Source of the DNA: Eledone cirrhosa
Lineage: Eukaryota
Reading direction: 5' to 3'
Length of the DNA stretch: 64,000 nt
Assembly: GCA_964016885.1 (NCBI GenBank)
Contig: OZ024741.1
Coordinates: forward strand, 408,704,001 to 408,768,000
A program made the translations under genes and the position numbers. Positions 725-9,853 of this stretch are shown in pieces (within the stretch, counting starts at the first letter, position 1; each line of letters starts with the position of its first letter). The notes beneath the pieces were generated by a model. It had not been told where the DNA came from. It searched no databases and worked only from the letters and a program-made list of their open reading frames with translations.

Positions 725-1046
725 TGTATATATATATATACATATAGAGGTAGAACACTGGAAGTGAATATCCATAGTGGTAGAGCACTCAGTCCATGGG
801 ACGAGTTTGGTAGGAGTGGTATAAGGTGAAACAATTGTTCTCAGTATGGTGAACTAACTGTTGTGTTACTACTTATATATATATATATATATATAGTCAA
901 AAGTAGAAGATATATATATATGTGAATATAGACATAGAATATTCGAAAATATTCTGTATGTTTATAATAAACATTTTGAAGACCTAATCGCTATAGAATA
1001 GAATACGTCACGTATTACAATTAGATTCTCGATAAAAGCAAGGGAA

Positions 1047-2956
1047 GTAAGTCTACGCGTTTCATTCTTGTTAGAATTCATCAGGACTACATATCCAGTG
1101 CTTTCATCGAGAATGACACAGCTAGAGACTTATAGAATACTTAGCTGTGTACAGGAACTGGTTTGAAAGAGCGGTTGCCGGTCCGGCAGAAATTGGAAAT
1201 TGGAATAAATGCTCTGAAATAGCGATATATATGTGAATATAGACATAGAATATTCGAAAATATTCTGTATGTTTATAATAAACATTTTGAAGACCTAATC
1301 GCTATAGAATAGAATACGTCACGTATTACAATTAGATTCTCGATAAAAGCAAGGGAAGTAAGTCTACGCGTTTCATTCTTGTTAGAATTCATCAGGACTA
1401 CATATCCAGTGCTTTCATCGAGAATGACACAGCTAGAGACTTATAGAATACTTAGCTGTGTACAGGAACTGGTTTGAAAGAGCGGTTGCCGGTCCGGCAG
1501 AAATTGGAAATTGGAATAAATGCTCTGAAATAGCGATATATATGTGAATATAGACATAGAATATTCGAAAATATTCTGTATGTTTATAATAAACATTTTG
1601 AAGACCTAATCGCTATAGAATAGAATACGTCACGTATTACAATTAGATTCTCGATAAAAGCAAGGGAAGTAAGTCTACGCGTTTCATTCTTGTTAGAATT
1701 CATCAGGACTACATATCCAGTGCTTTCATCGAGAATGACACAGCTAGAGACTTATAGAATACTTAGCTGTGTACAGGAACTGGTTTGAAAGAGCGGTTGC
1801 CGGTCCGGCAGAAATTGGAAATTGGAATAAATGCTCTGAAATAGCGATATATATGTGAATATAGACATAGAATATTCGAAAATATTCTGTATGTTTATAA
1901 TAAACATTTTGAAGACCTAATCGCTATAGAATAGAATACGTCACGTATTACAATTAGATTCTCGATAAAAGCAAGGGAAGTAAGTCTACGCGTTTCATTC
2001 TTGTTAGAATTCATCAGGACTACATATCCAGTGCTTTCATCGAGAATGACACAGCTAGAGACTTATAGAATACTTAGCTGTGTACAGGAACTGGTTTGAA
2101 AGAGCGGTTGCCGGTCCGGCAGAAATTGGAAATTGGAATAAATGCTCTGAAATAGCGATATATATGTGAATATAGACATAGAATATTCGAAAATATTCTG
2201 TATGTTTATAATAAACATTTTGAAGACCTAATCGCTATAGAATAGAATACGTCACGTATTACAATTAGATTCTCGATAAAAGCAAGGGAAGTAAGTCTAC
2301 GCGTTTCATTCTTGTTAGAATTCATCAGGACTACATATCCAGTGCTTTCATCGAGAATGACACAGCTAGAGACTTATAGAATACTTAGCTGTGTACAGGA
2401 ACTGGTTTGAAAGAGCGGTTGCCGGTCCGGCAGAAATTGGAAATTGGAATAAATGCTCTGAAATAGCGATATATATGTGAATATAGACATAGAATATTCG
2501 AAAATATTCTGTATGTTTATAATAAACATTTTGAAGACCTAATCGCTATAGAATAGAATACGTCACGTATTACAATTAGATTCTCGATAAAAGCAAGGGA
2601 AGTAAGTCTACGCGTTTCATTCTTGTTAGAATTCATCAGGACTACATATCCAGTGCTTTCATCGAGAATGACACAGCTAGAGACTTATAGAATACTTAGC
2701 TGTGTACAGGAACTGGTTTGAAAGAGCGGTTGCCGGTCCGGCAGAAATTGGAAATTGGAATAAATGCTCTGAAATAGCGATATATATGTGAATATAGACA
2801 TAGAATATTCGAAAATATTCTGTATGTTTATAATAAACATTTTGAAGACCTAATCGCTATAGAATAGAATACGTCACGTATTACAATTAGATTCTCGATA
2901 AAAGCAAGGGAAGTAAGTCTACGCGTTTCATTCTTGTTAGAATTCATCAGGACTAC
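1047..2956 (-). ncRNA. Seven tandem type I hammerhead ribozymes (1047-1090, 1358-1401, 1669-1712, 1980-2023, 2291-2334, 2602-2645, 2913-2956)
   Basis: The minus strand reads GUAGUC-CUGAUGA-AUUCU-AACA-AGAAU-GAA-ACGCGU-A-GACUUAC. This gives an intact core, a 5-bp helix II, a palindromic helix III (ACGCGU), a GUA cleavage triplet and helix I AGUC/GACU. Confidence 0.88.
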
Positions 2957-3122
2957 ATATCCAGTGCTTTCATCGAGAATATATATATCGCTATTTCAGA
3001 GCATTTATTCCAATTTCCAATTTCTGCCGGACCGGCAACCGCTCTTTCAAACCAGTTCCTGTACACAGCTAAGTATTCTATAAGTCTCTAGCTGTGTCAT
3101 TCTCGATGAAAGCACTGGATAT

Positions 3123-3477
3123 GTAGTCCTGATGAATTCTAACAAGAATGAAACGCGTAGACTTACTTCCCTTGCTTTTATCGAGAATCTAATTGTAATA
3201 CGTGACGTATTCTATTCTATAGCGATTAGGTCTTCAAAATGTTTATTATAAACATACAGAATATTTTCGAATATTCTATGTCTATATTCACATATATATC
3301 GCTATTTCAGAGCATTTATTCCAATTTCCAATTTCTGCCGGACCGGCAACCGCTCTTTCAAACCAGTTCCTGTACACAGCTAAGTATTCTATAAGTCTCT
3401 AGCTGTGTCATTCTCGATGAAAGCACTGGATATGTAGTCCTGATGAATTCTAACAAGAATGAAACGCGTAGACTTAC
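3123..3477 (+). ncRNA. Two type I hammerhead ribozymes (3123-3166, 3434-3477), same family as in the 311-bp unit
   Basis: The sequence is gtagtc CTGATGA attct aaca agaat GAAA cgcg TA gacttac, with predicted cleavage after 3159 and after 3470. Helix I extends via attctcgatgaaagca (3099-3114) pairing with tgcttttatcgagaat (3173-3188). Confidence 0.88.
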
Positions 3478-3997
3478 TTCCCTTGCTTTTATCGAGAATC
3501 TAATTGTAATACGTGACGTATTCTATTCTATAGCGATTAGGTCTTCAAAATGTTTATTATAAACATACAGAATATTTTCGAATATTCTATGTCTATATTC
3601 ACATATATATCGCTATTTCAGAGCATTTATTCCAATATATATATATATATATATATATAGAGAGAGAGAGAACCATATCTCCAGAGAAGACAGTATATTG
3701 TATATATACTAAATATTACAGTGAAGAACATGTACTCAAGACGGAATCAAAAGAGACCTTATGGCGCCATTTCATTAACTGTAAACTGTGATTTAAAATC
3801 GATCTACGTAAATGGTTATCGATCACATAATATTGATTATAATTAAATGATAGCAGACTCAGAAAACTCGTCTTTAGCATATTAATAGATACACATATCT
3901 TCTACTTTGACTAAATATTGCTCCAGATATTGTCTATTGAGCTAATTTATAGAGAAGCACAGAATTCTAACATATTTAATATGTTACATTTGTATAC

Positions 3998-4114
3998 GGA
4001 GTAGGTAGACCCAGAAAAACTTGGGACGATTTGATAAATTCCGACCTTACACACTTGCACCTCTCTAAGACAATATCACTGGACCGAGATCTTTGGCGCC
4101 ACGCAGTAATATAG
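3998..4114 (+). pseudogene. 3'-terminal fragment of an RTE-clade LINE ORF
   Basis: Translates as GVGRPRKTWDDLINSDLTHLHLSKTISLDRDLWRHAVI*, matching the RTE C-terminal signature GRPRKxW-D-I--DL...DR--WR. Confidence 0.8.
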
Positions 4115-4354
4115 AAGACCCGCCTTGCATATATACCAAGCGAAACCTACAGTCAGTAGGCACCTCTTAACCAAATATACACCCCCAATCCACTACCCCC
4201 ACCCCATCAACACCACCCCTTTCTCTGTAAAGTTATGTTGGTATGACAACATCCAGTCCAAACTAATGAGGTCGTGTAGATGTCACAAGAAAAAACACAC
4301 AGTCCACGCTATAATGTGGCCGTGTAGGTAACACAGTAAAAAGTTCCCAGTTCC

Positions 4355-4525
4355 ACACTGTAAATGTGGTTGGTGTTAGGAAGGGCATCCAGCTGTAGAA
4401 AACCTGCCAGATAGTCTTATACGAGCGAGACACGGTCACTCGACCAACCTTACCTCAAATTGAGACAACTCTCGTCTAACCCATGCTAGCGTGGAAGATG
4501 GATGTTAAACGAAGATGATTATGAT
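4355..4525 (+). mobile_element. SINE 3' half (same family as 8166-8600)
   Basis: cactgtaaatgtggttggtgttaggaagggcatccagctgtagaaa...cgtctaacccatgctagcgtggaagatggatgttaaacgaagatgattatg matches 8428-8600. Confidence 0.75.
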
Positions 4526-4544
4526 ATGTATATATATTTTTTTC

Positions 4545-8600: not shown

Positions 8601-8743
8601 TATTTGTATATATATATATGTAGGAGGTGAATTTTATTGTAGCACAATAAAGCAATGCAAATAACGGATAAGTAGCACTCAACAGTTTATTGGACTGGAG
8701 TATATATAAGAAGAAATTAAAAGATGGTTAAAAAAGTTCTATG

Positions 8744-8813
8744 TATTTTATTATGCACATTTCAAAAACAAGTATCATCCAGGGACGATATTTGCGTTCT
8801 CATCAGATAAATA
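8744..8813 (-). ncRNA. Type I hammerhead ribozyme, family 4 (left arm)
   Basis: Near reverse complement of 8937-9007; helix III is ATGTGCAT (G-U variant). Confidence 0.72.
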
Positions 8814-8936
8814 GGGAGATATGATATGAAGCTTAAAAAAGACACTGTGAACAAGGTAATGTCTAGTCAATATATATGTTGTTTAGACACTACCTTGCTC
8901 ACAAGTGTCTTTTTTAAGCTTCATATCATATCTCCC

Positions 8937-9007
8937 TATTTTATCTGATGAGAACGAAAATATCGTCCCTGGATGATATTTGTTTTTGAAATGCGCATAA
9001 TAAAATA
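8937..9007 (+). ncRNA. Type I hammerhead ribozyme, family 4 (right arm)
   Basis: The sequence is tattttat CTGATGA gaacgaa-aatatcgtcc-ct-ggatgatatt-tgttttt GAAA tgcgca TA ataaaata. Helix I has 8 bp and helix III is the palindrome ATGCGCAT. Confidence 0.8.
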
Positions 9008-9321
9008 CATGGAACTTTTTTAACCATCTTTTAATTTCTTCTTATATATATATATACAAATATATCATCATCATCATCACCGTTTTACGTCCTGCCAATA
9101 CTGGAATTGAATAATCAAAACCGTAGCGGTATGTCACATATCAAATCTTATATTTTGTCTCATGAAAACGTACTTAAACACCATTGTACCTTTGAAATAT
9201 GTATAATAAAATATATATTTTGATTATGAGAATATTTTTCATTTATTAACATTTTGAATAATGTATATATATTATTCAAAATATTAATAAATGAAGATAT
9301 TCCCATAATCAAAATATATGC

Positions 9322-9378
9322 TTTATTATATATATTTCGAAGGTAGTGTGTTTTTTCAGTACGTCCTCGTCAGATAAA
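9322..9378 (-). ncRNA. Type I hammerhead ribozyme, family 5 (minus copy)
   Basis: Near reverse complement of 9689-9748. Confidence 0.72.
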
Positions 9379-9688
9379 ATATATGATTTGATATATGACA
9401 TACCTCTACGGTCTTGAGAGTTCAATTCCTGTATTGGCAGTGATTTATTTCATCAAATCTCAACATTTATATATCACAAATAATAATATGATAAACTCTT
9501 TTTCTTCCCTTCCTCCTCTTCACACCCTCTCTTATATCTCTAATTTGCTCCATGTCCCTTTCTTCTTTAAGTTTATCATATTATTATTTGTGGTATATAA
9601 ATGTTGAGATTTGATGAAATAAATCACTACCAATACAGGAATTGAACTATCAAGACCGTAGAGGTATGTCATATATCAAATCATATAT

Positions 9689-9748
9689 TTTATCTGACGA
9701 GGACGTACTGAAAAAACAACACAGTACCTTCGAAATATATATAATAAA
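9689..9748 (+). ncRNA. Type I hammerhead ribozyme, family 5 (plus copy)
   Basis: The sequence is tttat CTGACGA ggac-gtactg-aaaaaacaaca-cagtac-cttc GAAA tatata TA ataaa, with helix I TTTAT/ATAAA and a palindromic helix III. Confidence 0.78.
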
Positions 9749-9853
9749 GCATATATTTTGATTATGGGAATATCTTCATTTGTTAATATTTTGAATAATA
9801 TTAAAACCTCTGTTGAGTGCTTTTAATCTATTGTAAAACTGTATTCATTGAGT

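Follow-up and report, generated by a model that had tools for sequence, protein, structure and literature searches.

How did five families of hammerhead ribozymes come to lie side by side within 9 kb of DNA, each as an inverted pair? The question is raised by a stretch of 64,000 nucleotides from Eledone cirrhosa (GenBank assembly GCA_964016885.1, contig OZ024741.1, positions 408,704,001 to 408,768,000 of the forward strand), here called the window, in which five such elements, numbered 1 to 5 from left to right, follow one another (Table 1). A sequence-only reading had taken them for unrelated, non-autonomous families of Penelope-like elements (PLEs), all in outward-pointing pairs, formed when both target strands of a TA microsatellite prime cDNA from the 3' end of the element RNA. 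We conclude with high confidence that the five elements are non-coding passengers mobilised by PLEs, and on balance we favour priming at two sites, on both target strands, as the process that built the head-to-head insertions.

The five inverted pairs are real and lie where the sequence-only reading had placed them; its arm coordinates are correct, and the arms are 95-100% identical. Identity is 100% in elements 1-3 (148 of 148 positions for 5133-5280 against 7373-7520 in element 2) and lower in elements 4 and 5 (Table 1). Type I hammerhead cores were scored where two core words, a self-complementary helix III and a helix I of at least 4 pairs occurred together. Seventeen mismatch-free cores were found in 1-12142, whereas 200 dinucleotide shuffles gave 0.005 on average and never more than 1; the motif is far more frequent than in shuffled sequence. 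These 17 cores represent five insertions, not 17 independent events. All 11 cores in left arms are on the minus strand and all 6 in right arms are on the plus strand, so the 3' ends face outward. When one mismatch was allowed in 1-12142 an 18th core appeared, at 9159 (+), in a decayed arm (9092-9262) that points inward. The outward orientation claimed for all copies therefore holds for the 17 cores of the five pairs, but not for this arm. A stricter scan of the whole window, which called for a well-paired helix II base, returned 15 cores and missed element 2 because the base of its helix II is weak. A scan against Rfam at E values up to 1 reported no hammerhead family, and its 10 matches were all microRNA-type hairpins.

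Helix III is self-complementary in all five families, in four different words, and in one arm of element 4 by way of a G-U pair. Helix I is short (4-8 pairs) and helix II is long in families 2-5. The extra nucleotide and the G10.1-C11.1 closure are clear only in family 5; helix II of family 1 is closed by A-U. For families 1, 2 and 5 the hammerhead fold was not recovered by single-sequence folding, a result that is expected given the weak helix III and does not count as support. Between families the arms are unrelated (core masked, best p ~0.02 of 10 pairs). In families 2-5 the word AATAAA lies at most 5 nt from the predicted cleavage site, and the arms cease matching 56, 56, 51, and 58 nt past that site, respectively. 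No element end coincides with a predicted cleavage site, the outer ends lying 51-198 nt 3' of it. Hammerhead cleavage is predicted to define no end here, and the motifs would be expected to cleave, if at all, as dimers.

Perfectly identical arms, as in elements 1-3, might also come from the assembly or the library, in the form of fold-back chimeras. No piece listed from other copies spans a whole element, and element 1 lies outside that comparison. Set against this, the arms of elements 4 and 5 have diverged and carry indels, the two sides of each pair differ in sequence, and the layout matches published PLE insertions. We regard an artefact as extremely unlikely.

Elements 2-5 continue beyond the matched arms on one side only, by 142, 97, 81, and ~52 nt. 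Their true limits probably lie about 50-140 nt further out on that side than the sequence-only reading had drawn them, which for annotation would put the element ends 50-140 nt beyond the visible palindromes. The word GTYGAGTRCT has four occurrences in 1-12142, where 0.075 are expected by composition; each extension contains one (4/4), always in the hammerhead sense. The best shared 10-mer of the extensions scores 28/30, a score reached by none of 300 shuffles. Tail alignments were significant only for elements 2 and 4 (p ~0.008) and elements 4 and 5 (p ~0.004) among 21 pairs. The families are thus unrelated in their arms, as claimed, but not in their extensions. Families 2-5 share one layout: the short end falls 51-58 nt beyond the cleavage site, and one side has a motif-bearing extension. 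We predict that GTYGAGTRCT acts as a cis signal to which a PLE protein, shared by these families or related between them, would respond; as a candidate protein-binding signal it could serve as a probe for finding the partner. A coding function of the extensions was rejected, as they have no common reading frame or start. Two further candidate tails, 747-873 and 3915-4000, were rejected as not significant (p 0.14-0.9). The former lies between two TA runs and has minus-strand words like those of the element 3 tail (alignment p ~0.25).

TA enrichment at the ends is present as the sequence-only reading had claimed. Of the 10 matched-arm ends, seven have a (TA)4+ run no more than 3 nt away, versus 5.9% of positions in 700-9900. 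A target-site duplication is unreadable inside TA tracts; the adjacency itself is seen.

All five elements carry type I hammerheads in a terminal repeat (17 cores), and all five contain an inverted, 5'-truncated copy placed head-to-head. At least nine further joints of this kind were found for families 2 and 3 (see below). An autonomous endonuclease-positive (EN+) PLE would encode a reverse transcriptase (RT) of the telomerase-like type and a GIY-YIG endonuclease in an open reading frame (ORF). No such ORF was found: 16 of the 40 stop-free frames of at least 35 amino acids in 5133-7520, taken from the longest, gave no Pfam match above cut-off, and no RT or endonuclease, and the other elements are too short.

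We hypothesize that a Penelope-like RT/GIY-YIG protein acting in trans would cut both strands in a TA tract. The RNA would offer two internal priming sites 3' of the hammerhead, and each target end would start its cDNA at one of them. The first site would be AT-rich; in families 2-5 it would lie 51-58 nt beyond the cleavage site, in family 1 in an (AT)4 of the repeat unit. The other target end would prime further 3', so that only one arm would hold the stretch between the two sites, which is the tail. Both cDNAs would stop early and their 3' ends would be joined, where possible via a short self-complementary word such as the native 8-nt word at the centre of element 3 (7849-7856). In element 1 both primings would take place on one multimeric RNA; the 3' priming would copy two units and the tail and stop where the internal priming had begun. 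With a tandem RNA as template, the product would therefore resemble an inverted repeat with a tail.

The junctions of element 1 bear on this scheme. The unit is 311 bp long with 35% GC and one hammerhead per full unit, which gives 9 cores in all. The left arm's outer end falls within an (AT)4 that belongs to the unit and blends into the target (AT)n at 910-921. The right arm starts at the same site of the unit and stops 34 nt past it, at (TA)12. Read in the RNA sense, the left arm and then the right arm are contiguous. The chance of a remainder of 30-40 nt is ~11/311 by hand calculation, for this one example. These junctions would fit the priming of both target strands on one multimeric RNA, and predict a tail-bearing arm that begins at the (AT)4 of the unit and is n x 311 + 34 nt long. 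The tail of element 1 is without the GTYGAGTRCT motif. The predicted 311-nt circle of the unit is self-paired (z -4.5 versus 60 mononucleotide shuffles). Element 1 is the only one of the five made of tandem, low-GC units of 150-450 bp that each carry a type I hammerhead and hold no ORF; elements 2-5 are not short tandem repeats. Element 1 thus fits the sequence definition of a non-LTR retrozyme. Its left flank (895-912) has an inverted near-copy at 3896-3914, 260 nt past the right end. The pair could be the trace of an earlier inverted insertion that served as landing site for element 1; a hammerhead was not found at either flank.

Where priming begins can also be judged from element 2. Its extension is joined to the arm in other records: set X1 holds a piece 5078-5196 with 7 other letters, and set X5 a piece 4991-5190. 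Record 9 of set X4 (838 nt) carries two minus-strand segments, 4991-5157 and 7090-7368, and shows the joints 7231>4991 and 7368>7139. In the hammerhead sense it reads from the arm into the tail, through ~300 unplaced letters, and on into the element 2 body. This record implies that the body sense is minus, that 4991-7371 is a 5'-truncated long arm, and that 7373-7520 is a short inverted copy. It also implies that the element 2 unit is tandem or circular, with the tail end internal to the RNA, and we infer a unit length of about 2.8 kb. The claim that priming starts from the RNA 3' end was not supported. Both ends of element 1 lie inside the tandem unit, and another copy of element 2 runs past the tail into its own body, which points to internal priming. 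The body of the window copy has a 507-bp duplication (90%, 5616-6635), a 12-bp unit repeated 4.2 times (6660-6710), and a 130-bp duplication (74%, 6908-7030/7235-7365); other copies differ at these places.

Other copies of elements 2 and 3 were obtained by comparing 4991-8073 with three contig sets and one set of restriction-site-associated DNA (RAD) reads. X1 may be the window's own sample, and X5 is from a differently coded organism. Among the sequencing runs listed as containing this sequence none was of RNA, which carries no message about expression, and runs with a small share of it were left out. Summed contig depth is ~1e5-5e5 over the arms versus 1e3-2e4 over the element 2 body; these values are not copy numbers, and the fall from arm to body is a gradient of 5' truncation. 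The element 3 extension is within one of the two deepest bins. Contigs of X4 and X5 carry other sequence before 7849, and family 3 is therefore longer than the window copy. At least nine joints, taken from 15 of 29 and 12 of 16 rows, link antisense to sense away from the window's centres, at offsets of -748 to 280 nt. They are suggestive evidence for variable centres. The genome-wide scale proposed in the sequence-only reading was sampled in this way, through reads, for families 2 and 3. No same-family joint among those listed was clearly tail-to-tail. Two rows marked as opposite strands with ambiguous direction, deletions, hops within the element 2 internal duplication, and two tandem rows that go back were left out of the count, and a cross-family joint (7940>7052) was dropped as likely spurious. 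Four of the nine joints lie at or just 5' of a hammerhead core (5237, 7727-7742), unlike the window's centres. Pile-ups of RAD read ends were rejected as element ends; they fall at AATT/TTAA words and were taken as restriction sites. A pattern scan of metagenomes for related loci gave 36 loci, none with the full hammerhead layout. The one with a core-like word upstream has a non-palindromic helix III, and all 36 were judged to be chance.

With other centres in other copies, the palindromes were likely built anew at each insertion. A different view would have them move as fixed units, like TA-targeting miniature inverted-repeat transposable elements (MITEs) or foldback DNA elements derived from PLE ends. 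Terminal inverted repeats with TA flanks do resemble Tc1/mariner-type MITEs. In a MITE or foldback element the full-length unit would be fixed, its centre would not vary and its ends would be symmetric. In families 2 and 3, by comparison, depth drops from the ends to the centre, copies of family 3 continue 5' of the centre seen here, other joints have other centres, and the tails are one-sided. Movement as fixed units is hardly credible on these grounds. In the terms of the sequence-only reading, a PLE-type, non-autonomous, (TA)n-targeted insertion built anew each time is supported by the lack of a Pfam match, the TA ends and the varied centres, though this had been published already.

Single arms might instead have been inserted independently, gathering in TA tracts and pairing by chance or by re-targeting the AT-rich end of an existing copy. 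The decayed arm 9092-9262 is a clear case of a separately inserted copy. It points inward, abuts the left arm of element 5 tail-to-tail across (TA)4, and is 83% identical to the right arm of that element, which makes two separate insertions. The region is also a TA hot spot for other repeats. For the five pairs this origin is very improbable. All five consist of same-family arms, 95-100% identical and head-to-head, and this identity already largely refutes it. Furthermore, the 5' ends are joined without a TA tract or flank between them, the (AT)5 of element 1 being the unit's own sequence.

The main rival to two-site priming is a single priming by the same PLE protein. The tail-side cDNA would fold back at a short self-complementary word, copy itself, and jump to the other flank at an AT-rich site by TA homology, leaving a second arm without a tail. 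Such words are present: the centre of element 3 is a native palindrome of 8 nt, the right arm of element 1 starts at the self-complementary (AT)4, and the loop of element 4 contains TATATA. The full identity of the arms in elements 1-3 agrees with self-copying, and PMC3846280, in the portion available, argues for self-priming from junction palindromes. At element 4, the sequence to the left (8574-8619, a SINE-like 3' end and an interrupted TA tract; SINE, short interspersed element) recurs inverted at 9044-9092 with 46 matches and one 3-nt indel. The match reflects either an inverted duplication of the flank, through fold-back or through conversion at a later time, or a pair of SINE ends that meet tail-to-tail, an arrangement seen also at 4500-4559, in which case it would not speak for fold-back. 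Fold-back does not predict element 1, where the arm that starts at the palindrome bears the tail and stops 34 nt past the site. In vitro, the PAc protein cuts and extends both strands (PMC11167929, in part). We rank two-site priming above fold-back, which we think rather unlikely. The proposal that two target strands prime would fit the junctions of element 1, although a single priming followed by fold-back would give most of the same products.

Several points weigh against the favoured reading. The 100% identity of arms in elements 1-3, the self-complementary centres and the 46-nt flank match of element 4 suit fold-back too. The helix II base of element 2 is mispaired, and the motif GTYGAGTRCT was a post hoc find. 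A TA tract bounds three of the four extensions, which brings the outer ends so counted to 9/10, but this figure is partly circular because the extension ends were drawn at the next TA run. Compared to the published tail of 30-40 nt, element 1 is within range (26-34 nt), whereas the extensions of elements 2-5 measure 142, 97, 81, and ~52 nt or more, those of 81-142 nt being longer. The read data, which cover 4991-8073, do not show the extension ends as fixed sites and take in neither the element 4 and element 5 tails nor either end of element 1. Depth is low at the nine joints and their sides are short (23-30 nt in the cases stated); several lie in local hairpins, and tail-to-tail joints across TA tracts could escape detection. 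Finally, the mechanism is proposed from DNA sequence, and neither an autonomous partner nor an empty site nor RNA came to light.

The cluster lies at the edge of a 52-kb satellite of 23/25-bp units (12143-64000), which occupies the remainder of the window. The satellite is preceded by an (ACC)n tract (10066-10658) and a 53-bp minisatellite (19 copies, 10913-11925). The only RT of the window region is a fragment of the long interspersed element (LINE) type at 2-586 (-) (RVT_1, E 1.4e-24), unrelated to the hammerhead elements. Copies of a repeat with (GAT)n 3' ends lie beside TA tracts at 4270-4537 (+), 4524-4863 (-), 8167-8615 (+), 9854-9902 (+), and ~12056-12097 (-), the first two tail-to-tail around a TA tract. 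We label this repeat SINE-like; ARAGORN found no tRNA gene in 1-12200.

Table 1. Positions of the five hammerhead elements and their parts in the window.
Feature	Positions	Strand	Details
Element 1 left arm	914-2980	-	6.65 identical copies of the 311-bp unit, 7 hammerheads
Element 1 right arm	2981-3636	+	656 nt = 2 x 311 + 34; cores 3129, 3440
Element 1 one-sided tail	3603-3636	+	26-34 nt (AT homology blurs the limits), then (TA)12
Element 2 one-sided extension	4991-5132	-	142 nt; motif at 5072; ends at (TA)24
Element 2 terminal repeat (pseudo-long terminal repeat (pLTR)-like), long arm	5133-5280	-	core 5238; predicted cleavage after 5189
Element 2 body	5281-7371	-	judged non-coding from the frames scanned; hammerhead-sense strand rich in pyrimidines; 507-bp internal duplication (90%)
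Element 2 short inverted arm	7373-7520	+	core 7415; ends at (TA)9
Element 3 one-sided extension	7535-7631	-	97 nt, bounded by the (TA)9 that element 2 also abuts; motif at 7594
Element 3 perfect palindrome	7632-7852/7853-8073	.	221/221 identical; cores 7732-, 7973+; right end at (TA)22
Element 4 one-sided extension	8620-8700	-	81 nt, bounded by the TA tract 8598-8619; motif at 8683; basis is the motif only
Element 4 arms	8701-8865/8884-9050	.	159/167 identical, 18-nt loop; cores 8806-, 8945+
Decayed family-5 arm	9092-9262	+	unpaired, older; core 9159 with one mismatch; 145/174 identical to element 5 right arm
Element 5 arms	9269-9497/9570-9801	.	224/232 identical; 72-nt pyrimidine-rich spacer, likely a 5' run-on of the right arm; cores 9373-, 9694+
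Element 5 one-sided extension	9802-9853	+	~52 nt or more; motif at 9812; meets a SINE-like fragment at 9854, so the far end is undefined

Paired head-to-head hammerheads in TA tracts are a known architecture of PLE insertion, and in this respect the idea of the sequence-only reading is largely known and the locus mostly ordinary. The comparisons that follow draw on portions of the cited sources. PMC3846280 reports inverted pLTRs, a 31-bp tail and junction palindromes, with head-to-head as the commonest layout. PMC8557442 reports an inverted 5'-truncated copy, a tail of 30-40 bp and (TA)n targeting in Naiad and Hydra, and hammerheads in Hydra but not in Naiad. In PMC11167929 both strands are cut and extended in vitro at AT-rich targets, two internal start sites bound the tail, and hammerhead cleavage is not needed for PAc insertion, which agrees with the position of the element ends here away from the cleavage sites. 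Our elements resemble these EN+ PLE insertions (Penelope/Poseidon, Neptune, Nematis, Hydra) in their head-to-head arms, 5' truncation and hammerhead in the terminal repeat. They are also alike in the one-sided tail (34 nt, element 1), the junction palindrome and the (TA)n target (Hydra, Naiad; Neptune has a microsatellite bias). They differ in that no ORF was found here, in the 81-142 nt extensions of elements 2-4 versus 30-40 nt, and in the shared 10-nt motif. Since Naiads are without hammerheads, Hydra or Neptune are the leads for the partner clade.

The ribozymes themselves are of the minimal PLE kind described in PMC4209133, in the part consulted: the core, a helix I of 4-8 pairs, a long helix II (families 2-5) and a palindromic helix III, which is given there as a feature of such hammerheads. 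Many divergent families per genome, and opposite-strand pairs ~100-700 bp apart, are likewise reported there and found here. Unlike in that description, the extra nucleotide with the G10.1-C11.1 closure is clear only in family 5, and family 1 has A-U.

What is new here are the long, motif-bearing extensions and the junction arithmetic of element 1. A partial literature search found no description of tails of 80-140 nt, of GTYGAGTRCT, or of a retrozyme array with a PLE tail, and no account specific to the presumed host; consensus files, for instance in Repbase, may already contain these families. How the inverted ends and tails of PLEs form is left open in the portions of PMC8557442 and PMC11167929 consulted, and element 1 bears on this question. 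Tentatively, it is possible that in a PLE lineage GTYGAGTRCT, lying downstream of the hammerhead-AATAAA block, acts as a conserved RNA signal that fixes two RT start sites with 80-140 nt between them, and that this module is all that parasitic non-coding families have kept. Element 1 would then be a record of twin priming on one retrozyme RNA, either multimeric or rolled-circle; it would link animal retrozymes directly to integration by PLEs and account for the inverted ends of PLEs.

Non-LTR retrozymes are defined in PMC7229834, the consulted part of which names PLEs as their likely movers and notes that mussel retrozymes are without most canonical loop 1-loop 2 tertiary contacts. A tie between retrozymes and PLEs has also been drawn from co-occurrence and pLTR homology, the mechanism being left open in the text consulted (bioRxiv 10.64898/2026.07.22.740005). 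Element 1 resembles these animal retrozymes in its tandem 311-bp units of 35% GC with a hammerhead and no ORF. It differs in that its units are divided between two inverted arms and end in a PLE-type tail, a direct mark of insertion that the retrozyme texts consulted do not describe. As a retrozyme-type array with a PLE tail and an inversion, it provides junction-level evidence on what moves animal retrozymes. In twin priming of L1, as set out in the part of PMC9148063 consulted, internal priming copies the 5' part inverted, and the copy primed at the 3' end halts at the point from which the internal one set out. Element 1 differs from L1 in that there is no poly(A) priming and that its template would be a tandem multimer, and resembles it in that, on the RNA, the inverted 5' part directly adjoins the beginning of the 3' part.

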